Shown: positions 2,923 through 62,695 of the stretch, in pieces
Position numbering within the stretch: the first letter of the stretch is position 1
Layout of the letters: the number at the start of each line of letters is the position of its first letter
Virus record (IMG/VR): IMGVR_UViG_3300002461_000278
Span: 1 to 62,695 of that record
Length of the DNA: 62,695 nt
DNA from: a virus
Reading direction: 5' to 3' (one strand)
The notes under the pieces: model-generated
The model's database searches: none
What the model was told of the DNA's origin: nothing
Seen by the model: the letters and a program-made list of their open reading frames with translations, nothing else
Translations under genes and position numbers: made by a program

Positions 2923-3000
2923 AGAGGTTGGTTGCTGTGAACGCGTCACAACTTCCGCCATGGCCACACCGGTCGGCCATGGCGGTCTTTGTCGGCTGCT

Positions 3001-47615: not shown

Positions 47616-47643
47616 GACCTCGAGCACAAGAAAGGCTCCGACC

Positions 47644-48078
47644 ATGATGCCTCCGAACCAGATGCCGCCCGCTGGCGCCAACGCCGGCGCGCCGCAACAG
47701 CAGCCGTCGCGACTTCCGCCGCACCTCAGCAAACTGCCGCCGGAGATTGCGGCGCAGATCGACCCGAACAACCCGATCCAGATGGAGCTGCTCAAGCGCA
47801 TCGACACATTGTCGCCGCAGGAAGCGCAGGCGCTGCGAACCGGCATCACGCCGCAGGCCGCAGCCGTCATGAAGCGATTGTTGCCCGAGGTTGGTTTCCT
47901 CCTCAGCGGCCGTGGCGCAGGCGCAGCGCCTGGTGGCCAAGCGCCGCAGCAGGGCGCGCCTGGTGGCCAGCCGCCGCGGCCGCCGATGCCGCCGCAGGGC
48001 GGTGGCGGTGGCGCACCGCCTCCGCAGGCGCAGGGCGGTTTCCCGCCGCGTCCGAAATCCAGACTTGGCGAGATGTAA
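47644..48078 (+). CDS. Pro/Gln/Gly-rich protein (144 aa)
   Basis: ORF track. The sequence is low-complexity but codons are G/C-ending. Confidence 0.5.
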   Translation: MMPPNQMPPAGANAGAPQQQPSRLPPHLSKLPPEIAAQIDPNNPIQMELLKRIDTLSPQEAQALRTGITPQAAAVMKRLLPEVGFLLSGRGAGAAPGGQAPQQGAPGGQPPRPPMPPQGGGGGAPPPQAQGGFPPRPKSRLGEM

Positions 48079-48092
48079 CGAGGTAGCGCGCC

Positions 48093-48764
48093 ATGTCGTG
48101 GAATTTCATCGCCCCGATCATCACCAACGCCGTCGGCGCGGCGATCGGCAAGTCGGCCAACAACGAAGCCGCGCAGATCGCGGCGAACGCGACGTTGCAG
48201 GGTGCGCAGATCGGTGCTGATGCCATCCGCGAAGGCAACACGCAGGCGCAGAACACGCTCAATACCGTCCGCAAGGAAGCAGCGCCGGCGACGAGCTATC
48301 TGCGCGGCGTCATCGCGCAGGAGGGAAGCCTCACGCCGGCGCAGGCCTCAGGCCTGACCGATGCGCGGCGCACGGTCGCCAACACGATCCACTCCTCGAA
48401 CTTCGCCGGATCCGGCCGCACCGCAACCGCGCTGTTCCGCAAAGCGGAGAGCGACTTCACCAACAACGCGCTCGATAGCAACAGCCAGCGTGCGTTCCAG
48501 GCTGCGACCGGCATGCAGGGCGGCGCGACGTCGGCCGCGACCGGCATCGCCAATTCGCAGGCGAACACCGGCAATGCCGTCGGCAAACTGATGAGTGACG
48601 CGACCACCAAGGCCGGGCTGTACGACGCGAACGCGACGACAGCGAACGGCAAGCTCACCGGCGAAGCGCTGGGCACGATCGGCGCCACGATCGCCAACGA
48701 ACAGCGCGCCAGCCGCTACGGCGACCGCATGGCGAAAATCGAGAAAGCTTTGGGTGTGACCTGA
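48093..48764 (+). CDS. Internal virion/ejection protein candidate
   Basis: 223 aa and Ala/Asn/Thr-rich. It precedes the repeat protein and the giant gene. Confidence 0.5.
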   Translation: MSWNFIAPIITNAVGAAIGKSANNEAAQIAANATLQGAQIGADAIREGNTQAQNTLNTVRKEAAPATSYLRGVIAQEGSLTPAQASGLTDARRTVANTIHSSNFAGSGRTATALFRKAESDFTNNALDSNSQRAFQAATGMQGGATSAATGIANSQANTGNAVGKLMSDATTKAGLYDANATTANGKLTGEALGTIGATIANEQRASRYGDRMAKIEKALGVT

Positions 48765-50257
48765 TGTCCGACAGAGTAGGGCTTGCCTTCATCACCGCCA
48801 ATCCGGCCACGGCCGCGTTCGAAGACGGCCAGCGCGCGGCGATGGCACGCGAGCAAGCCGAGCAGCAGCTTCAGGGGCAGATGCTCCAGAACGCCGAGAA
48901 TATGGCAGCCGCGCCGTCGCGCCTGAAAACGGTCAACGCTAACGCGAACCTCGCCACCACCAATGCCGACGTGGCGCAGAAGACAGCGCCCTACAAGGTG
49001 CAGTCGGCGGAAGCGGGGGCGCGCAGCGGCATGGCCGATGCCAGAGTTTCCGAAGGCACAGTCGGTTCGCGCATCGCGACGTCGGGCGCCGCCGCCCAAA
49101 CTGCAGGTGCGAATGCGCGCGTGGCATCGGGCACCGTCGATAGCCGCATTGCTGCGCAAGACGCAGCCGCGCGCACCGCGGGCGCGAATGCTGACGTTGC
49201 CGTCGGCACTGTGCAGCCGCGCATCGATACCGCGCAGTACGGCGCACAGACGGCCGGCGCGAATGCCAACGTGGCAACAGGCACCGTCCAACCACGGATC
49301 GATACAGCGCAGGCCGGTGCTCGCACCGCCGATGCAAACGCCGATGTCGCCGTCAACACCGTCGATCAACGCGTGAGAACTGGCCTCGCCAACACGCGGC
49401 TTGCCGAAACGAACGCCGATGTTGGTGAACAGACGGCTGACGCGCGCGTGCAAACGGCGCAGGCTGGCGCGCGATCGGCCGCTGCAGGCGCGGTGAAGGC
49501 GGAGATGGAGGGCTTCTACAAGTCGCTCGATCTTCTGAACGCAGGCGATCCGGCGAGCGCACAGGAAGTCGCGCGCGCCTATGGCAGCGAGATCCCGCCG
49601 CAGGTCGTGCAGGATGCAGGCCTGCGCAAGGAAATCACCGACGCGGCGAATTACGCCAAGAACGCGTATCCCAACCGCCCTGCCGATCAGCAGAAGTACA
49701 TTCAGGGCTTCATCAAGACCCGCACCGAGCGAATGGCCGCTGGCAAGCCGCAGCCCGATCCAACTGCGGTCTACAACGTGCCAGGCGCGCCGGAGCTTCC
49801 GGAATCGACAGCGACGTCGACGCAGCATGCGCCGGCCGAAGTCGCTGTTGCGACATGGCTGATGCAGAACAAGGTTGCGGCCAACGCGCAGGAAGCGTGG
49901 GACATGGTGCGGCGTTCGAAGTCGAACCCGACCACGGTTTATGCCAGCGTGTTCAACAACGCGTTGCGTGCGAACTTCGGCAATCAGGCGAAGGCGAAGC
50001 AGATCGCCGATGACTTCATGAAGCAGGCGGGGCTGGCGGGCCAACCGACGGCAGCACCGGCGCCAGCGCCAGCAGCTCCCGCTCGAGCGCCAGCTCCTGC
50101 GGCAGCACCAGGCGCGCCGAGCGCTGGCTTGCCGCCCGGTCAGGGCTCGCAGCAATCGCCGTACCAGGCGACGACGCAGCAGCACGTCAATTGGTTCAAG
50201 ACCTCCGCGCCTCCGGGCACGGTGATCAGCGTCAACGGCCAGCTCTACACCAAATAG
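48764..50257 (+). CDS. Internal virion protein candidate with seven 25-aa tandem repeats
   Basis: The repeat unit is TAGANA.VA.GTV..RI....A.AR. Its start overlaps the preceding stop (TGATG). Confidence 0.6.
   Translation: MSDRVGLAFITANPATAAFEDGQRAAMAREQAEQQLQGQMLQNAENMAAAPSRLKTVNANANLATTNADVAQKTAPYKVQSAEAGARSGMADARVSEGTVGSRIATSGAAAQTAGANARVASGTVDSRIAAQDAAARTAGANADVAVGTVQPRIDTAQYGAQTAGANANVATGTVQPRIDTAQAGARTADANADVAVNTVDQRVRTGLANTRLAETNADVGEQTADARVQTAQAGARSAAAGAVKAEMEGFYKSLDLLNAGDPASAQEVARAYGSEIPPQVVQDAGLRKEITDAANYAKNAYPNRPADQQKYIQGFIKTRTERMAAGKPQPDPTAVYNVPGAPELPESTATSTQHAPAEVAVATWLMQNKVAANAQEAWDMVRRSKSNPTTVYASVFNNALRANFGNQAKAKQIADDFMKQAGLAGQPTAAPAPAPAAPARAPAPAAAPGAPSAGLPPGQGSQQSPYQATTQQHVNWFKTSAPPGTVISVNGQLYTK
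48950..49474 (+). repeat. Coding tandem repeats, 75-nt period, seven units
   Basis: The repeats span aa 63-237 of the 497-aa protein. Confidence 0.8.
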
Positions 50258-50271: not shown

Positions 50272-53200
50272 ATGAACCTCGACATCACCGGCCTTAAGCC
50301 GCTGGATGCAAGCGGCTTGACGCCGGTAGCGCCCGACGGGCTGCAGATCGACGTCACCGGCTTGAAGCCGCTGGACGTCACGGGCTTGAAGCCCGCCAGC
50401 GCCGCACCGGCGCAAACCTCCCCAACTGAAACATCGCTGAGCGATTACCCGGTCGAATTCGGCAAGGGTGTGCTCGAAGGCGCCAAGAACCTTCCGGCTT
50501 CGGCCATGAAGGGCGCTGGCGCGGCCGCGACCGGCTTTACGCGTGATCAGCGGACCGTATTCGACCGCATCGATCGCGGCGAACGCGTCTCCGACATGGA
50601 AGATCCTGTCGGCTATCAGCACATGTCGCCGGAGCAGCGCATGGCCGCGCGCGCCGATATCGACCGCGCATCGGCCGTGCCGCTGACGCAATCACCGCTT
50701 TATCGCGCCGGCGAGGCCGTGGAGGAGTTCGGCAAAGAGACGCTCGCGCCGGCGCCGGGCTTCGAAGGCAGCTGGACGCGCGATATCGGCTCGGGCTTCG
50801 GCTCGATGGCCGCGGGCATCGGTTTGTCGCTGGTGCCGCATGTCGGTCCGTTCGCTGCGCAGGCGACGTTCTTCGGCGCCGGGCAGGGCGAAGCGGTCGA
50901 TCGCGCCGTCAAGAAGGGTGCGACCGAGGAGCAATCGATCCAGGCCGCGCGCCTCGGCACGATCCCGGGCGCAACTGACGCACTCGACATGCTGCTGCCG
51001 CAGCTCGGCTCGACCGGCCGCGCGCTCGGCTTCATCAAGCGCGTCGGCTTGCGCGCGCTCGAGGGCGCGTTGCTCGAGGGCGGGCAGGAGGGCGTTCAGC
51101 AGCTCATGCAGAACGCGATCGCGCAGGGCGTCTATAACCCGGCGCAGGATCTGCTCGAGGACGTGCCCCGGTCGATGGCGATCGGCGCCATCGTCGGCGG
51201 CGCGACGTCAGGCGGTTTTGCCGCGGCGGACCGCCGCCAGCCGGCCGCGGCGCAACCGCAGGCCGCCCCGGCGCAACAAATCGACCCCGTTTTGCAACAG
51301 GCCGCCCCGCAGGGCGTCCCTTCCGGGGCAATTCCCGCCGAAACCATCCTCCCGCCCGACCCGGTTAACCAGCCATTCAGCACGTCTGTAGAAAGCCCCG
51401 CAGCGCCAATAGGAGCCCCGCTGAGTGGGGGTCCGGTTTTGGCCGATGCGAGTGCCGGAATTCAGCCGCCAGCCAGCGGGCTCCCCGCCGCCGCAGAGCT
51501 GCCGGGCAATCCAGTTGAACTGGACGCGACCGGCCTTGAGCCGATGCCGCCGCCGTCCACCCGCCCGCTGCTCGAGCAGATCCTCAACGACCCGCGCCCG
51601 GTCGCCGAGATCCGGGCGGAGATGGAGGCGGCGCGGAAGGCCAGCCTGACGCCGGCGGTAGATTCGGCTCGCCTTGGCGAGGTGCAGGACGACGGAATTC
51701 TCGGCTTTCAGTCACTGAACGGCCAAGTTCGGCTGATTGACGGTCGCGTTATTCCAGTCTCCCAAGGCGCCGGGCAGATTTGGGGCCCTGAAGGCGTCTT
51801 GATCCACCCGAACATCGTAGCGGCGTTCAAGAACGGGCCGACCGACGAGTGGGTGCCGACGAAGTTGCCCGGATCCCGCCGCGCGCCGGTGCAGCTCGAG
51901 ACGGCAGGCGATCCGAGCCTCGGCGCCGAACAGACCGTGCAGCCGAAGTCGATGGCGCAGGCCGAGGCCGGTAATTACCGCAAGCGGCACGTCAAATGGA
52001 ACGGCATCGACGGCGCGATCGAAACCGAAGCCGGCCAGGAGCGCACTGGCATCGGCGCCGACGGCACGCCGTGGTCAGTGACGCTCCAGCACCCCTACGG
52101 TGAATTCAAGCGCACCGAAGGCAAGGACGGCGACCCGGTCGACTTCTACGTCGGGCCCAATCCCGATTCCGGCCGCGCGGTGGTGATCGACCAGGTCGAT
52201 CCCGACACGCGTAAGTTCGATGAGCACAAGGTGGTCATCGGCGTGCGCAGCGGCGATGAAGCGCTCGCGGTCTACAATTCCGGCTTTAGCGACGGCAGCG
52301 CCGAGATGCGCGTCGGCGCGGCGACCGAGATGAGCGCGGCCGAGCTGAAGACGTGGCTCGAGCAGGGCAACACCAAGAAGCCGCTTGCCTACACCAATCC
52401 GCCGGTTGACCGATCGCCGAAAGGCCCGTTGTCGCTGTTTCAGTTTCTCGCCAAGAACGGCGGCATTCAGGATCACGGCGGCGAGCTGCGCCACATGGGC
52501 CTCGATCGTACCTTCGTGCCCTCGTTCGGCCGGCTGGTGAGATCCAGCGGCATGACGCTGGATCGCGCGCGCGAAGCCCTGGTCGAAGCGGGGTACCTGC
52601 AGGATGCAGGCGCCATCAGCGGCGGCAATCCTGAAAGCTTCATCAACGATCTGCTCGAGGCGCTGGACGATGAGAGCCGCGGCAACCGGCTGTATTCCGT
52701 CCAAGACGTCGAAGCCTATCAGACCCGCGAATCGCAGCGTCAGGAAAAGGCCAATGCGGAGGAGCTTGCGCGCGCGATCGACGACGTTCGCTCGATCGCC
52801 AAGACCGAAGGCATCAACGCGACCGAGCAAGAGCTGAAAGACGCTGCCGAATTCTCATTGGTCAATGGCACTGACCTAATCGACGGACTGATCGAGATTG
52901 TCGAGCGCAGCGCTTACGCCGCGCACGATGAAGTGGTAGCGTTAGAACCTCAGGAGCAGGGCGATGGACAGCCGGCCGCGGATGACACCGGAAGATCGGA
53001 TCAGGGGAGCGCAGGATCTGCGCCGCCGCGCGAACGCGCAGCCGGGCCTGAAGCAGGCGCAGCGCCAGAACCTCCGGCGCGTGGCGAGCAATCTGGTCAA
53101 GCTGAACAGCCTCGAGGCGAAGCGCCGGTAGAGGCGCCGACCGACAATCGGCAGTACCTCGCATCGAAGGCGATGGAGGACGCACTCGACAAGATCGAGG

Positions 53201-56200
53201 TAGCGGTCGAGGCCAACGACCGAAAAGCGGTAATGGAAGCCGCGCGCGACGCTAAGCAGCTTCTCGCCGCCACGCCGCAGGCCATCAAGGACGACGATCT
53301 CCAGTATTGGTCGCAGTTCGGTCAGGTCATCGCGAAGATGGTCAAGCCGGGCTATGTGACGGCGAAGCAGCAGATCGAAGCTGAAGCCGCGCCGCCGCCG
53401 CCTGTCACGCGTGACAGCGGTTTAATTTCTGCGCCCTCAAATGAGGACGAAAAAATTAACACGCCTGCGCCGCCGCAAGCCTCCGAACCGGGCGAGAAAA
53501 TCGACACGGCCCCGGAAACTGCAGCTGCGCCGTCGATTGCTCTGGCACGGGCGCTGATGAAGCGCCTCGGGGCGGGCGAGGCGATCACAGCCAAGATCCT
53601 GCAGGACGAGGCGACCAAGGCCCACGGCGGTACGCTCGCAGAGGGCAAGTTCGACCGTAAGGACGCGCACGACGCGCTTGAGCTGGCGGTCAATCTCTAC
53701 ATTCGCGACACCCGCCACCTGCGCAGCGATAGCCCTGACGCGCGCATGGCATTCAAGATGCTCGACGAGTTTTTGGCAGACCTGCCGACGCAGCGCGTGC
53801 GCTCCGACGAGATGGTCGCGTTCGATCAGTTCTCCACGCCGCCGAATTATGCGCTTGCCGCGGCCTATGCCGCCAACTTGCGCTCTGGCGACACGCTGCT
53901 TGAGCCGTCGGCCGGCACCGGCTCGCTGGTCGCCGCGTCATCCATGCCCGGCGTCAAGATCGTCGCCAATGAGCTGTCCGACCGCCGTGCCGCGCTGTTG
54001 CGCGAGCTGGTCGGCACAAACGGTCGCGTCTTTAAGGAAAACGCCGAGCAGCTCGACAACGTGCTGCCCGATGACGTGACGCCGACCGTCGTGGTGATGA
54101 ACCCGCCGTTCTCGCAGACCGCTGGTCGCATGGGCGACAAGAAGGTGCCGATGACGCCGGCGGTGCACATCGAAGCCGCCTTGAAGCGTCTCGAGCCGGG
54201 CGGGCGCGTGGTCGCGATCGTCGGCCGCGGCATGACGATGGGATCGCCGACCTTCCGCGCCTGGTGGGGCAAGATCGGCGAGAAATATACCGTGGTCGCC
54301 AATATCGGCGTTGCCGGTGGCGCCTTTGAGAAATACGGCACCACTTTCGGCACGCGCCTGGTTGTCATAGATAAGGTCCAAGCCCCGGCGAATCATAAGC
54401 CGGTGCTGGTCGAAGCGCAGACGGTCGAGGACCTGATGCGCGCATTGGAGCCGATCCGCGATGCAAGACCATCCTCACCAGCACCACAAATTAGCGACGC
54501 TCAATCTCCTCCAGTTAAATCGAGCCGCGCTCCGTCAGTTGAAGGACGTGCAAGCGGAAGCACCGACGCACTATCTGCATCTGCTCAATCTGGCGGCATG
54601 GGGACTGGAGAACGGGGCGGAAGGGGAGTGGCCGTTCAAGGATCAGGCCGCGCTTCAACAGCAGGTGGACAATCTGTTCGCGTGGAAGCCGCAGATCGCG
54701 TTCAGGTGGCTGCTGAGCAATCCGAACGGGCAGGACAAGACAGAGCAGACGGCAAACCTCCTCAACGAGATCAACCTAGCGTCGACGCCGAAGGCAGCCG
54801 CGGCGGCAGTGCTCAACGCGATCTACAGCCGTCAGGTAGCGGACAATCCAGCGCTGCAGCCGTCGGCGAGCGAGTAGGGCTAGAACAGGTTGCGCCCGGC
54901 AAGCAGGGCGCTTCCGAGATCTCCGAAAGCCTCTATCAGCCTTATGAGCCCGCGCGCGTCCGCGTGAAGGGCGCAAAGCCGCATCCCGGCCCGCTGGTGG
55001 AATCGGCATCGATGTCGTCGGTTTCGCCGCCGCCGGCGACGTATGCGCCTCATCTGCCGAAGGCTGTCATCGAAAAGGGCCTGCTCTCGCTCGCCCAGCT
55101 CGAGACGACGGTTTACGCCGGTCAGGCGCACTCCAAGATGCTGCCTGCAGGCGAGGGCGAAACAGCCATGCGCCGCGGCTTCTTCATCGGCGACGGCACC
55201 GGCGTCGGCAAAGGCCGCGAGATCGCTGGCATAATCCTCGACAACTTCCAGCAGGGCCGGAAGAAGGCGATCTGGGTCTCGGAGAAGCAGACGCTGCTCA
55301 CCGACGCAAAACGCGATTGGGGCGGTCTCGAGCAGAACGCCAACCTCGTGTTCAACGCTGGCAAGGTCAAAACCGGCGAGCCGATCACCGCCGCAACGGG
55401 CGTGGGCTTCATCACCTACGACACGCTCAAGGGCGGCATGTCCGACCAGGAGGCGATCGCGCGCGGCGGTTTCGTGCGCAAGCAAAAGGTGTCGGTCAAC
55501 GGGCAGAGCGGCACGGTCGCTAAGATTGAGCCCGGCAACAGCAAGCGCCCGGCGCAGATTACCGTCGATCTGGACAACAAGACGCGCATCACCGCGCCCG
55601 CGAATGAAGTCACCGCGGCCGAGACCACGACTGTCAAATCCCGCGTCGACCAGCTCGTCGATTGGGTCGGCGCCGACTTCGACGGCGTTATCGCCTTCGA
55701 CGAAGCCCACAACATGGGCAACGCCGCCACGACCAAAGGCGATCGCGGTTTCAAGGACGCGGCGCAAAAGGCGCTCGCCGGCATCGCCCTGCAGGACCGC
55801 CTGCCGAATGCACGCGTGGTCTACGTCTCCGCTACTGGCGCAACCGAAGTGTCCAATCTGGCTTTCGCCAACCGTCTCGGCCTGTGGGGACGCGGCACGC
55901 CGTTCGCCTCACGCGACAAGTTCGTGGCCGACGTCGAAGAGGGCGGCATCGCGGCGATGGAGCTGATCGCCCGCGACATGAAGCAGCTCGGCCTCTACAC
56001 CGCGCGCAACCTCTCCTATGACGGCGTCGAATACGCCCGCGTCGAGCACAAGCTCGATGCCAACCAGCGGGAGATCTACGACACGCTGGCCGAGGCGTGG
56101 CAGTCCGTGCTGCGGAACATCAACGCCGCGCTCGAGGAGACCGGCGGCGACAAGGACGCGCGTGCCAAGTCGGCCGCGAAGTCTGCATTTTGGGGAGCGC

Positions 56201-59200
56201 ATCAGCGCTTCTTCAATCAGGTCATCTCGTCCATGCAGATGCCGTCGGTCATCGAGGACGTGGAAAAGGATCTGGCCGCCGGGCGCCAGGCGGTGCTGCA
56301 GCTCACCAATACCAACGAGGCCAGTCAGGAACGCGCCGCGGCGAAGGCGACGACGGCCGAGCAGATCGAAGACCTGGACATCACGCCGCGCGACCAGATC
56401 ATTCAGCTCGTCGAGCGCTCGTTCCCGACGCAGGAATACGAGACCTACACCGAGGAAGTTGACGGCAAATCCAAGGTCCGTTCGCGACCGGTGGTCGATA
56501 GCAACGGCGCGCCGGTGCAGAACAAGCAGGCGCTGCGGATGAAAGAGGACCTGATCGAGAAGCTCGCCTCGATCCGCGTCCCGCAAGGCCCGCTGGACAT
56601 GGTGCTCGATCACTTCGGCGTCGACGTCGTCGCGGAAGTGACCGGCCGCGGCCGCCGCTTCGTGCTCAAACCGGACGAAAAGACCGGCGAGCGCAAGCGA
56701 GTGGAGGAAAGCCGGCCGGGATCCGCAAACCTCGCCGAGACTGACGCCTTCCAGGCGGGCAAAAAGAAGATCCTGATCTTCTCGGAGGCCGGCGGTACCG
56801 GGCGCTCCTATCATGCTGACAACACGTCGGCGTCGAAGAACGCACGCCGCGCGCACTATCTCGTGCAAGGCGGTTGGCGCGCCGACAAGGCCGTGCAGGG
56901 CTTCGGGCGCACGCATCGCACCAATCAGGCCTCCGCGCCGATCGTGAAGCTGGTGACGACCGACCTGCAGGGCCAGAAGCGCTTCATCTCGTCGATCGCG
57001 CGCAGGCTTTCCCAGCTCGGGGCGCTCACCAAGGGCCAGCGCCAGGCGGGCGATCAGGGCATCTTCTCGGCCCGCGACAATCTGGAAAGCACCGAGGCGA
57101 CGTCGGCGCTGCGGCAGTTCTACACGGACCTGCTGCACGACAACGTCAAGGGCGTCGATATCGTCGATTTCGAGGAACAGACCGGCCTGCAGCTGCGGAA
57201 CAAGGACGACGAAGGCCGCTCGATGGGCGCGAAGGAGGACCTGCCGCCGATCACGCAGTTCCTTAATCGTCTGTTGTCGCTCAAGATCGACATGCAGAAC
57301 CGCGTGTTCGACGCATTCTCCGAGCGGCTCGATCGCGTCATTGAAGCGCGTCAGGCCGCAGGCCTGCTCGATGTCGGCCTCGAGACGGTGAAAGCCGACA
57401 AGATCGTCAAGGAGACCGAGAAGGTCGTCCACACGATCGAGGACACCAGCGCCGAGACGAAGCACGTCAAGTTCACGCTCTCCAACAAGTTCGTGGCGCT
57501 CGCCTTCGACGACGTCGCCGACAACAAGAACCGCCCGGTCAAATTCTTCGTGCGCAGCCCGAAGGGCAAGGTTTATGCGGTGGCGGAAGCCTCGAGCTTG
57601 ACGGACGCGAAGGGCAAGATCGTCGATTACTACCGCCTCATCAACGGCGTTTCAGGCTCGCATGTCGTCGAGCGCGCCAACGTCGACACCGGCAAGGGTT
57701 GGGACCGCATCGATCGCCGCCAGGCAGAGACGATGTGGAAGGCCGAGATCGACAAGGCCCCGGAATTCATCAGCTACCCGATGCACCTCATCACCGGCGC
57801 GATCCTGCCGATTTGGGACCGCCTCAAGGGCAGCGCGCGCGTGGTGCGCCTGCAGACGGACACCGGCGAGCAGTTCATCGGGCGCGTCATCCCCAACGCC
57901 CGCATTGCCGATACGCTCAAGGCGCTCGGCGCAGAAGCCGACGCGCCCAAGGTGACGCCGGAAAGCCTGCATGCCGCGCTCTCCGCCGGCGGCCGCGCTA
58001 CGCTGTCCAATGGATGGGTGCTCAAGCGATCGCGCGTTGCCAACGAACAGCGCATCGAGCTGACCGGCCCGTCGTCGTTCTCCGAAGGCACCGAGGTCAA
58101 GAAAGACGGCGCTTTCACCGAGCGTATCGACTTCAAGGTGCGATACTTCGTACCGACGTCGCTGCCGGATGGCCCGGAGACGCTGCAGCGCATCACGCGC
58201 TACCGCCCGGTCGTGGAGCTGACAGAGGCGAACGCCCGGCCGGGCCAGATGGCCGCCGGCGACGAGGATGCCATGTTCAAGCTGCGCACGCTCGAGCTGC
58301 GCGCGCCCTTCACCGACGAATTCACCGAGCAGCGCGAGAAGGTCTATCCGCTTCTGCGCCGCGAGCTGGACCGGCTTGGCCTGCCTCAGATAGCGTTGAA
58401 ACTGCCCGACACGATCGAAGCCTACGTCAACGGCAAGACCGTATCGGCCGACGGGCACTATCTGCGCGGTGTGCTGTCGATCGCGCTCGATGCCAACCGA
58501 AAATTCAACACTCTCCATCACGAGGCGCTGCATGCGCTCCGGCGCTTCGGTCTGTTCAAAGATGGCGAGTGGTCAATTCTAACGCGGGCCGCCAACGCCA
58601 GATGGCTCAACCAGTTCAAGATCAGCGAGCGCTACTCTGCTTGGCCGCAGGACAAGCAGATCGAAGAAGCGATCGCGCACGCTTATGCCGAATGGGCCGA
58701 GGGCAAGTTGACCGTAGAAGGCCGCATCGCACGGCTGTTCAAGCGGATTGGCGAATTCTTCGAAGCTGTCGGCAACGCGCTGCGCGGTGCAGGCTTCAGG
58801 ACCGCCGAGGGCATCTTCCGCGACATCAAGGGCGGAGAAGTCGGGTGGCGGATGCAGCCGCGGAACGTCTCGACCGGTCAGTTCGCGCCTGAAGGCGCGA
58901 TCGCCTATGCCGTCCGGTCCTCCGATGGCGACCTGTTCAAATCTGAGATCGTGCAGACGCCCGATGGTCCGCGGGAGCAGCTCGTTATTCCCGGCGCCGA
59001 GCGGATCAGCGATCGCCAGCGCGCCGAGCGCGAAGGGGCAAAGCCGAAGCGCTCTAGCAAGCCGCAAAAGACCGTCGATGGCCTGCCGCTGTTCGAGAAT
59101 GAGCCCGAACCCGATCTGCCGCTGTTCGCGCTCCGGCAGGAGCCCGGCACCGCCATCGAGCGCCACAACGCTGCGCAGGGCTTTCTGCAGCGCGGTCAGT

Positions 59201-61797
59201 TCATCGATCGAGCACTGCGCATGCCGTTCGACGTGCTTGGCGGCACCACTAAGGATGGCGTCTGGAAGCCCGGTCGGCGGATGTTCGACAAAGCCGCGTC
59301 CGTCATCACCAGGGCGGAATTCTCGACTGAGGGCCGCTTTGCCTTCCTCAATCCGGTCATGGAGGTTGCGCGCACCGGCCTTGTCGATCGCTACAGCCTT
59401 CGTGATCTGCCGGAATACGTCGATCGAGAACGCAAGCGCGCGCTCGATGAGCGGGCAGTCATGCTGCAGGGTGTCGAAGCGCTCAAGAGCCTCAAGGATC
59501 ACGGCGTCGGCCGCGAAGAGGCCAAGGTGCTACAGGCGATCCTGACCGGCGAGCAAGTCGCCGCCGGCGACATGGAAAAGCTGTCGGAGCCGATCCGCGC
59601 CGCGATCGACCAGCTCGGGCAGGAAGCCGTTGCGCTGGGCATGGTCAGCCCCGAATCCTATGAGCGCAATCGCGGGACCTATCTGCACCGCGTCTATCAG
59701 AAATACGAGGCCGAGCAGTCTGGCTTGGCGCGCATGGTCAACCGGATCATGGGCTCCAAGCGCAAGAAGATCATCGGCGACCAGTTCAAGGGCCGCGGCC
59801 TGTTTCAGGAAGTCGACGTCGCTCGGCTGATGAAAGACGTGCCGGGCTGGAACGAGGCCGCGCGCGGCAAGCCGCAGAAGGGCGAGGCCTTCATCCTGCT
59901 GGACGAGATGCCGGCACAGGGTGCGCTCGCCCTCAACGATGACACCAGCAAGGTTAAGCCGCTGCGCAGGATCTACTGGCCGGCGGAAACTGCCATTCCC
60001 GATCGCTACGATGGCTTCCGCAATCAAGGCATGTGGGAGGTGCGCGACGTCAGCGGTGGCAAAATCACGCTCTGGCGCGACTTCACCAAGGAAGAACGCA
60101 CCAAGATGGGCGAGATCCTCGACGCCCGTTACACCATCGGCAAGACGTTCATGCTGATGGCGCATGATTTGGCGAATGGGCGCTTCTACAAGGACATCGC
60201 CGAGAACGAGGGCTGGGCTCGATCGACGCCGCCGAATGCGAAGTGGCTGGACGCCTCAGAATGGGCCGCGCAGCGCCAGCGCGCCTTCAAGCATGGCGAC
60301 GTCGCCTGGGTGAAAGTGCCCGACGTCGAGATCCCGAATTCGGGCGGCAAGAAGCGCTGGGGCGCGCTCGCAGGCAAATGGGTCCGCGAAGAAATCTGGC
60401 GCGACCTTAACGAGCTGCAGATCATGCAGACGCCCGGCCTGTGGCGTGCGCTGCTGACGCAGTGGAAGCTCAACAAGACCGCGCGATCGCCGGTCGTGCA
60501 CATGAACAACGTGCTGTCGAACTTCGTCCTGATGGACATGATCGACGTGCGCTTTCAGGACTTCGCGTCGGGTTTGCGGTCGTACATCAAGGGCGACGAG
60601 GCCTATCAGGAGGCCTTCGCCAATGGCGCCTTCGGTGGCGACATGATGAGCCAGGAGGTCCGCGACCAGGTCCTCAAGCCGATCCTCGAGGAACTGGAGA
60701 AGGGCAACACGTACCAGCAGGGCGGGCATCTCGGCGCGCTCAGCCAGGTCAGCAAGTTCACCGAAAGCCTGTGGACCAAGCTCAAGGCGGTCGATGCGAA
60801 GATGATCGACGCGTACCGGGTGGAAGACGAGATCTTCCGCATGGCGGCATATACGCGCCGGCGCCAGCTCGGCGACGATCCGAAGCAGGCCGCGGACGTC
60901 GCGCGCGAGCAGTTCATCGATTACGACGTGCGCGCGCCTTGGATCAACGCTGCGCGCAACACCGTCCTGCCGTTCATCACCTACACCTATCGCGCCGCTC
61001 CGATGGTGGCGCGCGCGATCGCCACGCGGCCGTGGAAGCTCGGCAAGTATTTCCTGCTGACCTACATGCTCAATGCGCTGGCCTATGGCCTCACCGGCGA
61101 CGACGACGAGACGGCCGAGGAGCGCGGCAAGCGCGAAGACCGCGAGCGGAAGTCGCTGCGCGAGAATGAGCAGGGACGAGCATGGCTCGGAACGCCGCGC
61201 ATGCTGCGGATCCCGCTCAACGATCGCTACAACAACCCGCTGTTCCTCGACATTCGCCGCTGGGTGCCCGCGTCCGACATCTTCGACACGCAGGGCAACG
61301 ACATGCCGGCGTGGCTCAATCTCGGCGGTCCGCTGATGATCGGCGCCGAGCTGTTCCTCAATCGCAATGCCTTCACCGGCGAGGCCATCGTCAACACGAA
61401 GACCGATGACGTGTGGGATCGAATGGGCAACCGAGGCGACCACGTCTACAAGTCGTACATGCCGTCGGCCGCGTGGGTGCCGAACTCCTGGTATTGGGAC
61501 AAGATCGAGAACGCCGTCAAAGGCGCGACCGACGCGCAAGGACGTCCCTACAGCACGCTCGGCGCTGTCAGCAATTCCGTCGGCATCAAAGTAAAACCGC
61601 AGGACGTCGAGGACGGCCTGCGGTGGAAGGCTTACGAGTTCAGCAAGGTCGAGCAGGAGCTGTCAACGGAAGCCGGGCGGCTGGCGCGCCGGCGCGATCG
61701 CAAGATCATTTCAGAGAGCGAGTTCGAGCGCGCGATGGCCGACATCGGCAACAAGCGCCGCAAGCTCAACGAAAAACGCGAGAAGCTGCTGGACTAG
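50272..61797 (+). CDS. Giant polyvalent protein (3841 aa): N6-adenine DNA methyltransferase, strawberry-notch-type helicase, and HExxH module
   Basis: - MTase motif I EPSAGTGS at 53902..53925 and motif IV NPPF at 54100..54111.
- P-loop GDGTGVGKGR at 55189..55218.
- DEAH at 55699..55710.
- GRTHRTNQ at 56905..56928.
- HEALH at 58519..58533.
- PPase-like DGDPVDFYVGPN at 52126..52161.
- A single uninterrupted ORF. Confidence 0.85.
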   Translation: MNLDITGLKPLDASGLTPVAPDGLQIDVTGLKPLDVTGLKPASAAPAQTSPTETSLSDYPVEFGKGVLEGAKNLPASAMKGAGAAATGFTRDQRTVFDRIDRGERVSDMEDPVGYQHMSPEQRMAARADIDRASAVPLTQSPLYRAGEAVEEFGKETLAPAPGFEGSWTRDIGSGFGSMAAGIGLSLVPHVGPFAAQATFFGAGQGEAVDRAVKKGATEEQSIQAARLGTIPGATDALDMLLPQLGSTGRALGFIKRVGLRALEGALLEGGQEGVQQLMQNAIAQGVYNPAQDLLEDVPRSMAIGAIVGGATSGGFAAADRRQPAAAQPQAAPAQQIDPVLQQAAPQGVPSGAIPAETILPPDPVNQPFSTSVESPAAPIGAPLSGGPVLADASAGIQPPASGLPAAAELPGNPVELDATGLEPMPPPSTRPLLEQILNDPRPVAEIRAEMEAARKASLTPAVDSARLGEVQDDGILGFQSLNGQVRLIDGRVIPVSQGAGQIWGPEGVLIHPNIVAAFKNGPTDEWVPTKLPGSRRAPVQLETAGDPSLGAEQTVQPKSMAQAEAGNYRKRHVKWNGIDGAIETEAGQERTGIGADGTPWSVTLQHPYGEFKRTEGKDGDPVDFYVGPNPDSGRAVVIDQVDPDTRKFDEHKVVIGVRSGDEALAVYNSGFSDGSAEMRVGAATEMSAAELKTWLEQGNTKKPLAYTNPPVDRSPKGPLSLFQFLAKNGGIQDHGGELRHMGLDRTFVPSFGRLVRSSGMTLDRAREALVEAGYLQDAGAISGGNPESFINDLLEALDDESRGNRLYSVQDVEAYQTRESQRQEKANAEELARAIDDVRSIAKTEGINATEQELKDAAEFSLVNGTDLIDGLIEIVERSAYAAHDEVVALEPQEQGDGQPAADDTGRSDQGSAGSAPPRERAAGPEAGAAPEPPARGEQSGQAEQPRGEAPVEAPTDNRQYLASKAMEDALDKIEVAVEANDRKAVMEAARDAKQLLAATPQAIKDDDLQYWSQFGQVIAKMVKPGYVTAKQQIEAEAAPPPPVTRDSGLISAPSNEDEKINTPAPPQASEPGEKIDTAPETAAAPSIALARALMKRLGAGEAITAKILQDEATKAHGGTLAEGKFDRKDAHDALELAVNLYIRDTRHLRSDSPDARMAFKMLDEFLADLPTQRVRSDEMVAFDQFSTPPNYALAAAYAANLRSGDTLLEPSAGTGSLVAASSMPGVKIVANELSDRRAALLRELVGTNGRVFKENAEQLDNVLPDDVTPTVVVMNPPFSQTAGRMGDKKVPMTPAVHIEAALKRLEPGGRVVAIVGRGMTMGSPTFRAWWGKIGEKYTVVANIGVAGGAFEKYGTTFGTRLVVIDKVQAPANHKPVLVEAQTVEDLMRALEPIRDARPSSPAPQISDAQSPPVKSSRAPSVEGRASGSTDALSASAQSGGMGTGERGGRGVAVQGSGRASTAGGQSVRVEAADRVQVAAEQSERAGQDRADGKPPQRDQPSVDAEGSRGGSAQRDLQPSGSGQSSAAAVGERVGLEQVAPGKQGASEISESLYQPYEPARVRVKGAKPHPGPLVESASMSSVSPPPATYAPHLPKAVIEKGLLSLAQLETTVYAGQAHSKMLPAGEGETAMRRGFFIGDGTGVGKGREIAGIILDNFQQGRKKAIWVSEKQTLLTDAKRDWGGLEQNANLVFNAGKVKTGEPITAATGVGFITYDTLKGGMSDQEAIARGGFVRKQKVSVNGQSGTVAKIEPGNSKRPAQITVDLDNKTRITAPANEVTAAETTTVKSRVDQLVDWVGADFDGVIAFDEAHNMGNAATTKGDRGFKDAAQKALAGIALQDRLPNARVVYVSATGATEVSNLAFANRLGLWGRGTPFASRDKFVADVEEGGIAAMELIARDMKQLGLYTARNLSYDGVEYARVEHKLDANQREIYDTLAEAWQSVLRNINAALEETGGDKDARAKSAAKSAFWGAHQRFFNQVISSMQMPSVIEDVEKDLAAGRQAVLQLTNTNEASQERAAAKATTAEQIEDLDITPRDQIIQLVERSFPTQEYETYTEEVDGKSKVRSRPVVDSNGAPVQNKQALRMKEDLIEKLASIRVPQGPLDMVLDHFGVDVVAEVTGRGRRFVLKPDEKTGERKRVEESRPGSANLAETDAFQAGKKKILIFSEAGGTGRSYHADNTSASKNARRAHYLVQGGWRADKAVQGFGRTHRTNQASAPIVKLVTTDLQGQKRFISSIARRLSQLGALTKGQRQAGDQGIFSARDNLESTEATSALRQFYTDLLHDNVKGVDIVDFEEQTGLQLRNKDDEGRSMGAKEDLPPITQFLNRLLSLKIDMQNRVFDAFSERLDRVIEARQAAGLLDVGLETVKADKIVKETEKVVHTIEDTSAETKHVKFTLSNKFVALAFDDVADNKNRPVKFFVRSPKGKVYAVAEASSLTDAKGKIVDYYRLINGVSGSHVVERANVDTGKGWDRIDRRQAETMWKAEIDKAPEFISYPMHLITGAILPIWDRLKGSARVVRLQTDTGEQFIGRVIPNARIADTLKALGAEADAPKVTPESLHAALSAGGRATLSNGWVLKRSRVANEQRIELTGPSSFSEGTEVKKDGAFTERIDFKVRYFVPTSLPDGPETLQRITRYRPVVELTEANARPGQMAAGDEDAMFKLRTLELRAPFTDEFTEQREKVYPLLRRELDRLGLPQIALKLPDTIEAYVNGKTVSADGHYLRGVLSIALDANRKFNTLHHEALHALRRFGLFKDGEWSILTRAANARWLNQFKISERYSAWPQDKQIEEAIAHAYAEWAEGKLTVEGRIARLFKRIGEFFEAVGNALRGAGFRTAEGIFRDIKGGEVGWRMQPRNVSTGQFAPEGAIAYAVRSSDGDLFKSEIVQTPDGPREQLVIPGAERISDRQRAEREGAKPKRSSKPQKTVDGLPLFENEPEPDLPLFALRQEPGTAIERHNAAQGFLQRGQFIDRALRMPFDVLGGTTKDGVWKPGRRMFDKAASVITRAEFSTEGRFAFLNPVMEVARTGLVDRYSLRDLPEYVDRERKRALDERAVMLQGVEALKSLKDHGVGREEAKVLQAILTGEQVAAGDMEKLSEPIRAAIDQLGQEAVALGMVSPESYERNRGTYLHRVYQKYEAEQSGLARMVNRIMGSKRKKIIGDQFKGRGLFQEVDVARLMKDVPGWNEAARGKPQKGEAFILLDEMPAQGALALNDDTSKVKPLRRIYWPAETAIPDRYDGFRNQGMWEVRDVSGGKITLWRDFTKEERTKMGEILDARYTIGKTFMLMAHDLANGRFYKDIAENEGWARSTPPNAKWLDASEWAAQRQRAFKHGDVAWVKVPDVEIPNSGGKKRWGALAGKWVREEIWRDLNELQIMQTPGLWRALLTQWKLNKTARSPVVHMNNVLSNFVLMDMIDVRFQDFASGLRSYIKGDEAYQEAFANGAFGGDMMSQEVRDQVLKPILEELEKGNTYQQGGHLGALSQVSKFTESLWTKLKAVDAKMIDAYRVEDEIFRMAAYTRRRQLGDDPKQAADVAREQFIDYDVRAPWINAARNTVLPFITYTYRAAPMVARAIATRPWKLGKYFLLTYMLNALAYGLTGDDDETAEERGKREDRERKSLRENEQGRAWLGTPRMLRIPLNDRYNNPLFLDIRRWVPASDIFDTQGNDMPAWLNLGGPLMIGAELFLNRNAFTGEAIVNTKTDDVWDRMGNRGDHVYKSYMPSAAWVPNSWYWDKIENAVKGATDAQGRPYSTLGAVSNSVGIKVKPQDVEDGLRWKAYEFSKVEQELSTEAGRLARRRDRKIISESEFERAMADIGNKRRKLNEKREKLLD
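53404..53415. repeat. GTCACGCGTGAC palindrome, copy 7 (extended form CTGTCACGCGTGACAG, 53402..53417)
   Basis: Exact 16-bp palindrome inside the giant gene. Confidence 0.9.
54461..54877 (+). CDS. 138-codon +1-frame ORF embedded in the giant gene linker; candidate overprinted gene
   Basis: ATG at 54461 with GGAG 10 nt upstream. The frame is bounded by TGA 54434 and TAG 54875. Third-position G/C is high in this frame and low in the giant frame. The composition is non-junk. Confidence 0.4.
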   Translation: MQDHPHQHHKLATLNLLQLNRAALRQLKDVQAEAPTHYLHLLNLAAWGLENGAEGEWPFKDQAALQQQVDNLFAWKPQIAFRWLLSNPNGQDKTEQTANLLNEINLASTPKAAAAAVLNAIYSRQVADNPALQPSASE

Positions 61798-62542: not shown

Positions 62543-62695
62543 CTAAAGGCCGAAACGCCACCAAAGCGTACCGAATCCGGCCGCAAAACCGATGATTGCG
62601 CCGCCGTCGCGCGGGATTAGGGCGCCGATCCCGGGCGCTCGATCGAGCAGGAAGCGGTGGAGCAGCCATCCCGCGATGGCGTGTTCGCCGACCAG
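62543..62695 (-). CDS. Small two-TM membrane protein, 3' part (same ORF as 1..145; truncated by the window end)
   Basis: The stop is TAG at 62545..62543. The region 62602..62695 duplicates 1..94. Confidence 0.4.
   Translation of the reverse strand: MVGEHAIAGWLLHRFLLDRAPGIGALIPRDGGAIIGFAAGFGTLWWRFGL
62602..62695. repeat. Terminal direct repeat, copy 2
   Basis: Identical to 1..94. Confidence 0.95.

Follow-up and report, generated by a model that had tools for sequence, protein, structure and literature searches.

The window, that is, the whole 62,695-nucleotide stretch of DNA analysed here, has ends that overlap by 94 nt and represents a circular genome of ~62.6 kb (62,601 bp). The genes for the terminase, the portal, the major head protein, and a tail or connector protein lie upstream of one giant gene, which forms the end of the virion module (Table 1). 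The giant ORF starts with ATG and contains no internal stop codon over its 3841 codons. GC3 is 0.66–0.88 in each 900-nt block, and the codon-position GC is thus coding-like and uniform from end to end. The same module order recurs in a 3852-aa open frame of a Variibacter MAG contig (L010) and in one of 4089 aa in an IMG/VR contig (L037), which argues that the ORF is no fusion artefact. Thus, the initial annotation was correct in describing an uninterrupted 3841-codon ORF that closes the virion module, and all the motifs quoted there were located in the translation.

Table 1 Features of the giant gene, the modules of its product, and the ORFs upstream of it
Feature	Residues	Coordinates	Strand	Basis
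Four ORFs upstream of the giant gene, candidate companion ejection/internal proteins		46644..50257	+	role from position only
Upstream ORF, Gly-rich		46644-47615	+	translation
Upstream ORF, P/Q/G-rich		47644-48078	+	translation
Upstream ORF		48093-48764	+	translation
Upstream ORF with ~22-aa degenerate repeats		48764-50257	+	translation, repeat analysis
Single gene, 3,841-aa polyvalent protein		50272..61797	+	ORF list, translation; 18% of 62,601-bp genome
Short peptide repeats D(I/V/x)(T/S)GL(K/T)P	3-42	50278..50397	+	motif positions
Conserved N-terminal element	205-321	50884..51234	+	HHalign to N4 vRNAP NTD aa325-443, DC1 gp67 aa472-603
A/P/Q/G-rich low-complexity linker	322-440	51235..51591	+	composition
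Polyvalent-type inorganic pyrophosphatase (InPase) domain	562-697	51955..52362	+	Pfam PF18823
Conserved region behind InPase, A/E/P-rich linker at its end	705-1000	52384..53271	+	phrog_37402
Cassette colinear with complete plasmid-type methyltransferase-SBNO protein	~1102-2650	53575..58221	+	tblastn against plasmids
N6-adenine (gamma-class, EcoKI/TaqI-like) methyltransferase, predicted	1183-1395	53818..54456	+	PHROGs, PADLOC, HHalign to DarB
S/A/G/P-rich low-complexity linker	1400-1600	54469..55071	+	composition
Strawberry-notch (SBNO) SF2 ATPase/translocase, predicted	1620-2372	55129..57387	+	Pfam AAA_34 + Helicase_C_4
C-terminal extension of SBNO cassette	2380-2670	57409..58281	+	colinear with plasmid proteins to ~aa2650
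HExxH module, candidate metal-dependent peptidase	2680-2860	58309..58851	+	motif conservation
Conserved ~890-aa, mostly alpha-helical C-terminal module	2950-3841	59119..61794	+	phmmer, AF2, BFVD
Core of C-terminal module, aligned with N4 vRNAP CTD-C2 (gp50 aa~3197-3445)	3385-3590	60424..61041	+	HHalign

The MCP and the portal are related to their KPP25 and DC1 counterparts. The capsid type had been thought to resemble that of N4-like phages; this was not supported, because the head genes are KPP25-/Bcep22-like (MCP versus N4 gp56, E 0.009) and the terminase is the only head gene with N4 similarity. Among the ORFs directly upstream of the giant gene, those at 46644-47615, 48093-48764, and 48764-50257 matched no PHROG family, and pairwise similarity to the neighbour proteins in DC1 and KPP25 was not found. 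When seven upstream ORFs were compared with N4 gp51–54 (phmmer, four-sequence database), nothing below E 0.006 appeared, a pairwise result with which remote homology is compatible. No promoter or terminator signal above chance was found between the giant gene and the late genes.

Modules of the giant protein

Three features are found in the N-terminal region. One is the repeats at the extreme N terminus, already noticed as DITGLKPLD repeats: this sequence occurs at aa4, and DVTGLKP occurs at aa27 and aa35. Repeats of this type start 13 relatives, and different short repeats are found there in other relatives. Another is the conserved N-terminal element, in which the pattern EGxQEGxQQxxQN is followed by a Gly-rich hydrophobic stretch. 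Its residues 209–320 align with the NTD family of N4 gp50 (aa325–443; HHalign 95.7%, E 1e-8), with a real score of 73.4 against 17.5 for the reversed sequence and 30.1 for the best of 25 block-shuffles. The element also aligns with DC1 gp67 (92.5%), as does the N4 NTD (87.3%), these matches likewise lying well beyond the control scores, and phrog_2206 'virion RNA polymerase' matches aa249–337 (E 8e-5). By these profile comparisons, the element and a section of the N4 vRNAP NTD are homologous, the shared part being ~115 residues of a 900-aa NTD. The last feature is the linker behind the element (A+P+G+S+Q account for 68 of the 100 residues at aa301–400), which is analogous to the 100-aa low-complexity linker that follows the N4 NTD (PMC13434306).

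A scan with profiles, as proposed in the initial annotation, confirmed the InPase, methyltransferase, and SBNO domains, with the peptidase fold as the sole exception. For the pyrophosphatase, where a stretch resembling the inorganic-pyrophosphatase core had been suspected, PF18823 matched with E 8e-42 (142.7 bits versus a cut-off of 26.8). The motifs YGEFKRTEG and DGDPVDFYV start at aa609 and aa619, respectively, and D619, D621, D624, D650, E651, and K653 are kept in 56–61 of 61 relatives. The InPase region is also matched by phrog_10089, and phrog_37402 covers aa560–845. The domain was found by tblastn in 461 phage records, mostly in virion proteins; it occurs in portal and minor head proteins, and the portal in PDB 9b41 is matched by it at the C-terminal end. 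The region behind it, present in 43 of 177 relatives, matched no Pfam family.

The methyltransferase carries the TP, ExxAGxG, and NPPF motifs (EPSAGTGS at aa1211, NPPF at aa1277), from which an amino-MTase had been proposed. This is supported by phrog_10691 (3e-25), phrog_6263 'DNA methyltransferase' (2e-10), PADLOC mad2 (3e-14), and the match to P1 DarB described below; the Pfam matches were below the cut-offs. E1211, P1212, A1214, G1215, G1217, and N1277-P-P are kept in 37 of 37 relatives, and F1280 in 36 of them. Behind the linker that follows (A+P+G+S+Q, 63 and 59 per 100 residues), AAA_34 (E 2e-113, 378.6 bits versus a cut-off of 27) and Helicase_C_4 (E 9e-86, 288.4 bits versus 30.5) establish the helicase as the strawberry-notch type that had been claimed. 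Its motifs are GDGTGVGKGR at aa1640, FDEAHN at aa1809, GGTGRSYHAD at aa2174, and GRTHRTNQ at aa2212, and the Walker A DxTGxGKGR (GKGR, 1646–1649), the DExH (DEAH, 1810–1813), and motif VI GRxxR (GRTHR, 2212–2216) are kept in 24–27 of 27 relatives. The extension behind it may be the SnoC-wHTH region named in PMC5512222.

The whole cassette has counterparts on plasmids: 604 plasmid records matched it by tblastn, 382 of them with at least 80% coverage, at ~43–46% identity. These homologues are annotated as 'bifunctional class I SAM-dependent methyltransferase/DEAD/DEAH box helicase' or 'strawberry notch family protein', and their genes stand in establishment, leading-region, or tra contexts, beside ssb, radC, DUF932, toprim, or traI/traD. 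The plasmid proteins (~1400 aa; e.g. WP_072506870 of Phaeobacter pP97_c) are colinear with the giant protein over ~1500 residues at ~45% identity and have the same order of methyltransferase, linker, SBNO, and extension. However, the ~1400-aa forms, which lack InPase and the phage terminal parts, stand alone and presumably become active once conjugation has brought them or their DNA into the cell, whereas here the cassette is nested within a phage virion protein; a 3236-aa methyltransferase-SBNO version is found on a Methylomonas plasmid. The helicase part had no match in 50,697 isolated phage records, and the SBNO cassette occurs in at least 25 IMG/VR contigs. From these alignments, the cassette is plasmid-type in origin and resembles those that conjugative plasmids encode in their leading or transfer regions. 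The literature searched contained no experimental test of any SBNO-methyltransferase protein.

The HExxH module contains the only HExxH of the protein (HHEALH at aa2749). H2750, E2751, H2754, and E2799 are invariant and E2798 is nearly so in 17 homologues, and the motif lies on a helix with a conserved downstream Glu, as in zincin-like proteins. The module occurs in 84 of 177 relatives, behaving as a separate mobile module, and is also found in the KPP25 virion protein ORF088 (HHalign 87.8%). No Pfam match at E<1 and no PDB profile match at E<10 were obtained, and the AF2 model is all-helical without strands and has no PDB fold match (best Foldseek E 0.6); this result is weak negative evidence, because the model is only moderately confident (pLDDT 75). 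Thus, of the metallopeptidase that had been claimed, the motif and the conserved residues stand, while the zincin fold was not recovered in Pfam, PDB profiles, or AF2-Foldseek, and the module is regarded as a candidate, putative metallopeptidase.

The C-terminal module (AF2 pLDDT 75.5) is widespread. Among 1.84 billion representatives searched by phmmer, 2641 matched at E<=1e-3, of which 844 reached E<=1e-30. In the best 150 of the 2641, the module is at the C-terminal end, mostly in proteins of 2000–5900 aa. BFVD gave 72 matches at E<=1e-3, and most of those listed are pieces split off from large polyvalent proteins of phages. Some relatives consist of the module alone (~870–900 aa), and others pair it with InPase, ART-PolyVal, RadC-JAB, LPD37, or LPD38. 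Neither the C-terminal module nor the N-terminal element matched any Pfam or LPD family.

Relation to polyvalent proteins, DarB, and the N4 virion RNA polymerase

The polyvalent proteins of phages are a published class (Iyer, Burroughs, Anand, de Souza & Aravind 2017, J Bacteriol; PMC5512222), in which many unrelated effector domains are combined in a single giant polypeptide encoded among late or virion genes. The giant protein, assigned to them in the initial annotation, shows this domain mix: at least two unrelated enzymatic or effector domains are present (InPase, N6-methyltransferase, and SBNO ATPase, together with the HExxH module), and PF18823 is a polyvalent-specific family. Its relatives, some with ART-PolyVal, RadC, LPD37, and LPD38, are located in prophage late regions ahead of lysis genes, and they are regarded as polyvalent because the same C-terminal module is recombined with varied domains, the behaviour that defines the class (PMC5512222). 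Judged from its sequence, the giant protein is therefore a further case of this known, DarB-like class. It differs from the described members in two points: a Strawberry-notch helicase is mentioned there only 'in a few instances', the example being from Methylomonas (PMC5512222), and its C-terminal module and N-terminal element lie outside all Pfam and LPD families.

P1 DarB, for which PMC5512222 gives the precedent and a translocating-methylase model, is a 2255-aa virion head protein that protects DNA in cis from type I restriction. The parallel with it, which had been drawn for both enzymes, holds for the methyltransferase (DarB aa90–288; HHalign 95.8%, E 7e-9, 28% identity over 196 aa), which an SF2 ATPase follows in both proteins. 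It does not hold for the helicase, since SBNO is a different SF2 family (HHalign 2.8%), and no similarity was found outside the methyltransferase. DarB lacks InPase, the HExxH module, and both terminal parts; moreover, P1 is a myovirus in which DarA, Hdf, and other proteins are needed for packaging. Closer in setting are the Bcep22-like giants (Bcep22 gp75; DC1 gp67, 4650 aa; JC1 gp69, 4515 aa). They are likewise products of the last virion-module gene, in podoviruses with related MCP and portal, are of comparable size, bear the 'DarB-like' label, and share the N-terminal element in the case of DC1. JC1 gp69 was detected by mass spectrometry in CsCl-purified virions (PMC9144972). Nevertheless, their helicase belongs to another family, and DC1 gp67 has no BLASTP similarity to the giant protein: the ~115-residue element is the only link, and the match of the C-terminal module to gp67 is just a 42-residue motif (HHalign probability 6%).

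The third comparison is with N4 gp50 (Schitoviridae, 9PNR), whose NTD is a membrane-inserting domain by which the enzyme stays anchored (PMC13434306) and whose C-terminal region (CTD-C1/C2) is required for encapsidation. The overall plan is alike: an N-terminal injection or membrane domain (putative in the giant protein), a low-complexity linker, and enzymatic cargo, followed in both by an HExxH part and a large helical part that may be equivalent. The linker-rich layout of the giant protein also agrees with the domain plan published for N4 and with the model of ejection as beads on a string (PMC13434306). The HExxH module occupies the same relative position as CTD-C1, although only 14 columns around the motif are aligned (HHalign 19.6%). 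For the C-terminal core, 203 columns are aligned with CTD-C2 (HHalign 66%, P 5.6e-5), covering ~200 of the 890 residues; the score of 53.2 exceeds those of the reversed sequence (19.3) and of the best of 25 shuffles (25.0). An HMM of N4 C2 matched many relatives at the same two positions and, in reversed sequences, nothing below E 0.47. In Foldseek, the top PDB match of the C-terminal module is again N4 gp50 (9pnr), weak in its values (E 5e-3, prob 0.28, TM 0.10). The core is thus probably homologous to CTD-C2, the match being modest. The earlier proposal that the gene occupies the slot of the N4 vRNAP accordingly gains more than position, through the N-terminal element and, weakly, the CTD-C2 match. 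On the other hand, the cargo here is pyrophosphatase, methyltransferase, and SBNO translocase instead of RNA polymerase, for which no Pfam family matched; PF21769, PF21894, PF21624, and PF21867, the families of N4-like relatives (via the gp50 C-terminal domain, extending upstream), are all absent from its Pfam matches. In the pairwise comparison, no resemblance to gp51 or gp52 was detected in the neighbouring ORFs, and the head genes, apart from the terminase, are not N4-like.

Proposed function and its alternatives

Since N4-vRNAP-like N- and C-terminal parts surround the enzymes, the protein is probably injected with the DNA to protect it. We consider it likely that it is a virion-packaged, host-injected polyvalent protein whose cargo, held between these parts, most likely methylates and guards the entering DNA. 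We infer packaging, ejection, and anti-restriction from homology and synteny; the substrate and a proteolytic step are inferred as well. The N-terminal region, with its repeats and N4-NTD-like element, would lead the exit through the tail and anchor at the cell envelope, and the long low-complexity linkers would let the chain thread through the narrow channel like a string of beads. CTD-C1 and CTD-C2 may have their positional counterparts in the HExxH module and the ~890-residue helical module, respectively, and these two modules would serve capsid incorporation, because the corresponding N4 region is required for encapsidation. In place of the RNA polymerase, the cargo would be the pyrophosphatase, the N6-adenine DNA methyltransferase, and the Strawberry-notch SF2 translocase. 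Inside the cell, the translocase would track along the incoming phage DNA while the fused methyltransferase modifies it, producing a restriction shield before any phage gene is expressed, as in the DarB paradigm; bound nucleases may perhaps be displaced too. The pyrophosphatase would clear PPi or a nucleotide signal, and the HExxH module may cleave the chain into working pieces.

Genome entry is driven by polymerases in N4 and T7. The protein might accordingly be an ejected DNA-entry motor that replaces such enzyme-driven internalisation, with its N-terminal domain at the inner membrane, its SBNO translocase pulling the genome in, and methylation being secondary or regulatory. The N4-vRNAP-like terminal parts, with a dsDNA translocase where N4 has its polymerase, the membrane anchoring of the N4 NTD (PMC13434306), and the duplex-DNA translocation by SWI2/SNF2-type ATPases (PMC5512222) are consistent with this. 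However, the same cassette occurs on conjugative plasmids, where the type IV secretion system drives DNA entry, and SBNO is present in just 31 of 177 relatives with the same terminal parts, so that it is not essential for genome entry in this lineage. We therefore regard an entry motor as unlikely.

Many phage methyltransferases are active in the producing cell. An unpackaged cytoplasmic enzyme, expressed late and serving to methylate the progeny DNA ahead of its packaging or to manipulate the host at that stage, would also agree with the failure to detect a promoter or terminator between the gene and the late genes; its place in the virion module would then reflect co-transcription only. This is improbable when set against the homology of the N-terminal element and, weakly, of the C-terminal core to the ejected N4 gp50 or the virion-found JC1 gp69, and against the InPase-type domains in portal and head proteins. 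Moreover, the long linkers and a C-terminal module that is always terminal (in the best 150 of 2641 matches) are hard to explain in a soluble cytoplasmic enzyme.

About half of the chain, made up of the N-terminal region, the linkers, and the C-terminal module, is devoid of enzymatic signatures, and the C-terminal module alone makes up some relatives, as would be expected of a mainly structural ejectosome or internal-core protein whose enzyme domains are decayed, inactive passengers. Such decay is quite improbable: the catalytic residues of InPase, methyltransferase, and SBNO are kept in nearly all the relatives that carry these domains, and this conservation and the ~45% identity of the cassette to plasmid proteins across 1500 residues indicate purifying selection on activity. 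Finally, an assembly or frameshift artefact joining several genes, which the extreme length and the metagenome-style circular assembly with its terminal overlap might bring to mind, is hardly credible in view of the uniform codon-position GC, the independent open frames with the same module order (3852 and 4089 aa), a further such frame in the relative P0040 (4088 aa), and the giant genes (4500–4650 aa) verified in cultured relatives.

A broader view can also be considered, for and against which we judge the case to be evenly balanced: the N4 vRNAP, the Bcep22-like giants, and this mostly uncultivated family (>2,600 clusters at 50% identity) would share one modular ejection framework with arbitrary cargo between its parts. 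At the N-terminal side it would have an injection or membrane element and at the C-terminal side a large helical module for encapsidation, and low-complexity linkers and an HExxH module would belong to it as well. N4 would have loaded it with an RNA polymerase, and the phage studied here with an entire methyltransferase-SBNO cassette taken over from conjugative plasmids.

Three points, each drawn from sequence comparison, appear to be new: the colinearity with plasmid methyltransferase-SBNO proteins, the homology of the N-terminal element to the N4 NTD and DC1 gp67, and the widespread C-terminal module with its weak match to CTD-C2. In a newly infected cell, ejected polyvalent proteins act before all other phage molecules and therefore decide whether host defences win. 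An 'establishment' cassette, complete with methyltransferase and translocase, is exchanged between conjugative plasmids and the virion proteins of phages, and the family that carries the C-terminal module is far commoner in uncultivated and prophage genomes (thousands of clusters) than in isolated phages. Through the kinship of its terminal parts with those of the N4 vRNAP, an ejection system that has been studied closely is linked to many more phages, and there is a hint as to which parts packaging and injection need. If the framework is true, CTD-C2, reported in 2026 as being without a structural homologue, would belong to a very large family, and megadalton protein cargo could be delivered by a general route that is open to engineering.

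Genome context of the giant gene

The giant gene had been described in the initial annotation as an uninterrupted 3841-codon ORF, and this was verified: its translation runs without an internal stop, and all the motifs quoted there were found in the translation at the places assigned to them. GC3 ranges from 0.66 to 0.88 across the gene, and the codon-position GC is coding-like in all 13 of the 13 blocks of 900 nt. The two ends of the window (1-94 and 62602-62695) share 94 identical nucleotides; the window is thus a circular assembly of 62,601 unique bp, 18% of which belongs to the giant gene, and the circle is probably a complete phage genome. An exact-protein look-up found the identical protein to be absent from public assemblies. 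When the giant gene was compared by megablast, no match was obtained in phages, and just two SBNO matches of ~90 nt each were obtained in plasmids. No tRNA genes were found in the window, the promoter and terminator scans stayed at chance level, and the tandem repeats at the DNA level were trivial ones. In the ~30 ORFs compared with Pfam or PHROGs, neither an integrase nor a lysis gene was recognised. The early/replication region has genes for a HerA/TrwB-like ATPase, for a DUF6551 protein, for a RecD/PIF1-like SF1 helicase and for a replication-initiator-like protein; its partition- and plasmid-like flavour suggests that the phage might be an extrachromosomal prophage.

The genes for the terminase, portal, head and tail-type proteins lie upstream (see the table; a beta-helix protein was also seen in the window), and the giant gene therefore closes the virion module. 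Just upstream of it is the gene for the 497-aa repeat protein, which belongs to no PHROG family and has no similarity to N4 gp51 or gp52. Further upstream are the Gly-rich and P/Q/G-rich ORFs, whose products are candidate internal or ejection proteins and were orphans in the searches made. No similarity was found between the upstream ORFs and N4 gp51-54 or the DC1 and KPP25 neighbours. On the other side, a beta-barrel gene is convergent with the giant gene, their stop codons overlapping, and the homology to a Variibacter MAG contig (L010) runs on through it. This gene looks like a conserved moron, possibly functioning in superinfection exclusion or surface modification.

Features of the window and modules of the giant protein (nucleotide positions, or residues where marked aa)
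Feature	Position	Strand	Characteristics
Early/replication region	1094-2893, 3001-3846, 7887-9029; 18028-18906	-; +	
Large terminase	upstream of giant gene		phrog_38, 4e-50
Portal	upstream of giant gene		3e-90
Major head protein	upstream of giant gene		5e-78
Tail-fibre/decoration-like protein	upstream of giant gene		
'Head closure Hc3' homologue	upstream of giant gene		
Gly-rich ORF	46644-47615	+	GGGGxY runs; C-terminal third hydrophobic
P/Q/G-rich ORF	47644-48078	+	144 aa
497-aa protein	48764-50257	+	~8 degenerate ~22-residue repeats, TAGANA[ND]VAxGTVxxRIDTAQxGAx; P/A-rich tail
Giant gene	50272..61797	+	3,841 codons; ATG start; no internal stop
InPase	aa562-697		Pfam PF18823, 8e-42
SBNO helicase	aa~1620-2372		Pfam AAA_34 2e-113, Helicase_C_4 9e-86
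HExxH module	aa2680-2860		H, E, H and downstream E invariant
Outer-membrane beta-barrel protein	61794-62459	-	221 aa; Pfam OMP_b-brl 7e-18; signal-peptide-like N-terminus

Enzymatic domains and the plasmid-type cassette

The proposed pyrophosphatase core and strawberry-notch-type helicase were both substantiated by Pfam, the latter through two families. The methyltransferase scores under the Pfam thresholds; the amino-MTase assignment is upheld by PHROGs, by PADLOC mad2 (3e-14) and by profile similarity to the methyltransferase of P1 DarB (95.8%, E 7e-9). DarB is alike in this domain, whereas its helicase is unlike that of the giant protein (2.8%). A reading of the gene as a defence system was rejected, because the mad2 match reflects the methyltransferase fold only and the gene lies in a virion module. 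Searches of Pfam and NCBIfam with the N-terminal 560 aa, aa701-1130, aa2371-2850 and aa2851-3841 gave nothing significant, and a SHOCT match at the extreme C-terminus (E 0.003, under the cut-off) was dismissed.

The HExxH metallopeptidase claim stood in part. The motif residues are invariant; no sign of a peptidase fold emerged, since no Pfam family matched the module, the PDB profile search was empty, and the all-helical, moderately confident model had no significant neighbour in a Foldseek search of the PDB. The term 'metallopeptidase' is thus a putative one, derived from the motif. This module is also present in KPP25 ORF088 (2009 aa; 87.8%), to which the N-terminal and C-terminal profiles gave no match.

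The region of aa~1102-2650 is colinear with a plasmid protein of ~1400 aa at ~43-46% identity. This cassette protein, annotated as 'bifunctional class I SAM-dependent methyltransferase/DEAD/DEAH box helicase' or 'strawberry notch family protein', was found on 604 plasmid records (382 with ≥80% query coverage), mostly alphaproteobacterial, and 308 of the 604 were typed as conjugative. On a Phaeobacter plasmid, the cassette gene lies amid ssb, DUF932, radC, antitoxin and toprim genes. On a Methylomonas sp. LL1 plasmid (L007, 8809-18519), traI, the coupling protein gene, traF, a topoisomerase III gene and traD are immediately followed by the gene for a 'strawberry notch-like' polyvalent protein of 3236 aa, the conjugative counterpart of the phage giant protein. 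Among viruses, tblastn of the cassette segment against 50,697 isolated phage genomes gave no match, and the cassette was found inside ORFs of 2,300-5,700 aa on at least 25 IMG/VR viral contigs. Most of the cassette-bearing viral contigs (L037-L061) carry giant ORFs without a BLAST-detectable copy of the C-terminal module of the window, so that this cargo seems to occur with different terminal regions as well. The literature searched yielded no experimental work on a methyltransferase-SBNO protein.

Terminal regions and the N4 virion RNA polymerase

No Pfam family matches the last ~890 residues, which define a large family of their own: when 1.84 billion representatives were scanned in full with HMMER, 2,641 proteins scored at E ≤ 1e-3, 844 of them at E ≤ 1e-30. 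Among the best 150 matches listed, mostly proteins of 2,000-5,900 aa, the module forms the C-terminal end. The domains upstream of it vary among relatives (InPase, ART-PolyVal, RadC-JAB, LPD37 and LPD38), and such swapping is the signature of polyvalent proteins (Iyer et al. 2017, PMC5512222). Prophages of Alphaproteobacteria, and of certain other Proteobacteria, carry the relatives in late regions followed by lysis genes; Fulvimarina endophytica 85 and Roseobacter sp. SK209-2-6 are among the hosts. Stand-alone ORFs of ~870-900 aa were also observed (L019 from Roseobacter sp. SK209-2-6, L021, and the relatives P0099 and P0134), indicating that the module can work as a separate polypeptide. In the relative P0003, an insertion of ~340 aa with a LAGLIDADG_3 match (aa ~1165-1503) lies in the middle of the module, between the equivalents of aa ~3401 and 3402. 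This insertion resembles an intein, and the site it occupies would then be highly conserved and functionally important.

According to the initial annotation, the giant gene occupies the slot of the N4 virion RNA polymerase in a phage of similar capsid type. The latter part was not borne out: the terminase resembles N4 gp68, but the MCP and portal have their relatives in Pseudomonas phage KPP25 and Burkholderia phage DC1, not in N4. The link to the polymerase itself received support from the termini. N4 gp50 consists of a membrane-inserting NTD, a 100-residue low-complexity linker, the RNA polymerase, CTD-C1 with an HExxH motif, and CTD-C2, a ~110-kDa helical domain 'with no significant structural homology'; its ejection resembles beads on a string (2026 structure, PMC13434306), and its encapsidation requires the C-terminal 1,400 residues (Iyer et al. 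2017, PMC5512222). In profile-profile comparisons, the family alignment of aa209-320 matched gp50 aa325-443 (95.7%, E 1e-8), the N-terminal element matched DC1 gp67 aa472-603 (92.5%), and the N4 NTD matched DC1 (87.3%). The score of 73 for the N-terminal element exceeds those of reversed or block-shuffled controls (≤~30). This element is therefore common to the giant protein, the N4 vRNAP and the Bcep22-like giants.

The C-terminal core (aa3385-3590) aligned with gp50 aa~3197-3445 less strongly (66%, P 5.6e-5; score 53, controls ≤25). With an N4-C2 HMM, numerous family members were hit at two recurring positions, and reversed sequences gave nothing below E 0.47. Modelled with AF2 (pLDDT 75.5), the module is mostly helical, and its top match among 350,542 PDB chains was the N4 virion RNA polymerase (9pnr), a weak one (E 5e-3, prob 0.28). 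The module is probably, not certainly, a relative of CTD-C2. The HHalign alignment of the HExxH module with CTD-C1 was confined to the motif. BLASTP against DC1 gp67 gave no match, and HMM and HHalign comparisons of the C-terminal module with DC1 gave a short motif only. In BFVD, many entries matched the model, largely split-off pieces of phage 'large polyvalent' proteins, one being from Ralstonia phage Alix.

No classical transmembrane helix above 1.3 showed up in a Kyte-Doolittle scan; the hydrophobic stretches of the N-terminal region are Gly/Ala-rich and not canonical TM segments. At the extreme N-terminus of relatives, DxTGLKP is replaced by tandem peptides of LSFDDLIP, GMFDHLIP, LPPIPDGF or APWERDYE (P0050, P0101, P0083 and P0129). 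The repeated short linear motif is kept there as a feature, not in its sequence.

Proposed role and its alternatives

From homology, synteny and motif conservation, we infer that the evidence is explained best by a protein that is packaged and ejected, its ends being related to delivery and its enzymatic middle exchangeable. By the analogy with DarB and type III R-M systems that Iyer et al. (2017, PMC5512222) laid out for a translocase-methylase, the SBNO translocase would travel on the incoming duplex and the fused methyltransferase would modify it, giving protection ahead of any phage gene expression. The pyrophosphatase may remove PPi or a nucleotide signal, and the HExxH module may process the chain.

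The translocase could also be taken for a DNA-entry motor; this is less likely, and the cassette is present in 31 of the 177 relatives. An unpackaged late enzyme is also less likely: in DC1 the same position is taken by a 'DarB-like' gene of 4650 aa, with small reverse-strand genes and lysis genes coming after it, and its JC1 homologue, gp69, had the second-highest score in the mass-spectrometry table of purified virions (PMC9144972). KPP25 ORF088, which shares the HExxH module, is annotated as a virion structural protein. InPase domains occur in 461 phage records, mostly in head or virion proteins, and a solved portal (PDB 9b41 chain L, 'gp19 Portal', 765 aa) has an InPase-like domain at its C-terminus (aa630-762; E 4e-17 with aa567-705 of the giant protein), which places such a domain physically inside a capsid. 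A purely structural protein is less likely too: the InPase acidic cluster, the ExxAGxG and NPPF motifs, and the Walker A, DExH and motif VI residues are almost invariant among the relatives carrying each domain, so that the three enzymes are probably active. As for an assembly artefact, also less likely, the giant gene is not a fusion artefact, because giant open frames elsewhere (3852 aa on L010, 4089 aa on the IMG/VR contig L037, and 4088 aa in the relative P0040) keep the module order.

The polyvalent class is already known, and so is the idea of such proteins in the N4 polymerase slot. Three features are apparently undescribed in the literature examined: a complete plasmid-type methyltransferase-SBNO cassette nested in a phage virion protein, a very large family defined by an unannotated C-terminal module, and the homology of the N-terminal element with the N4 vRNAP, accompanied by a probable homology of the C-terminal core.
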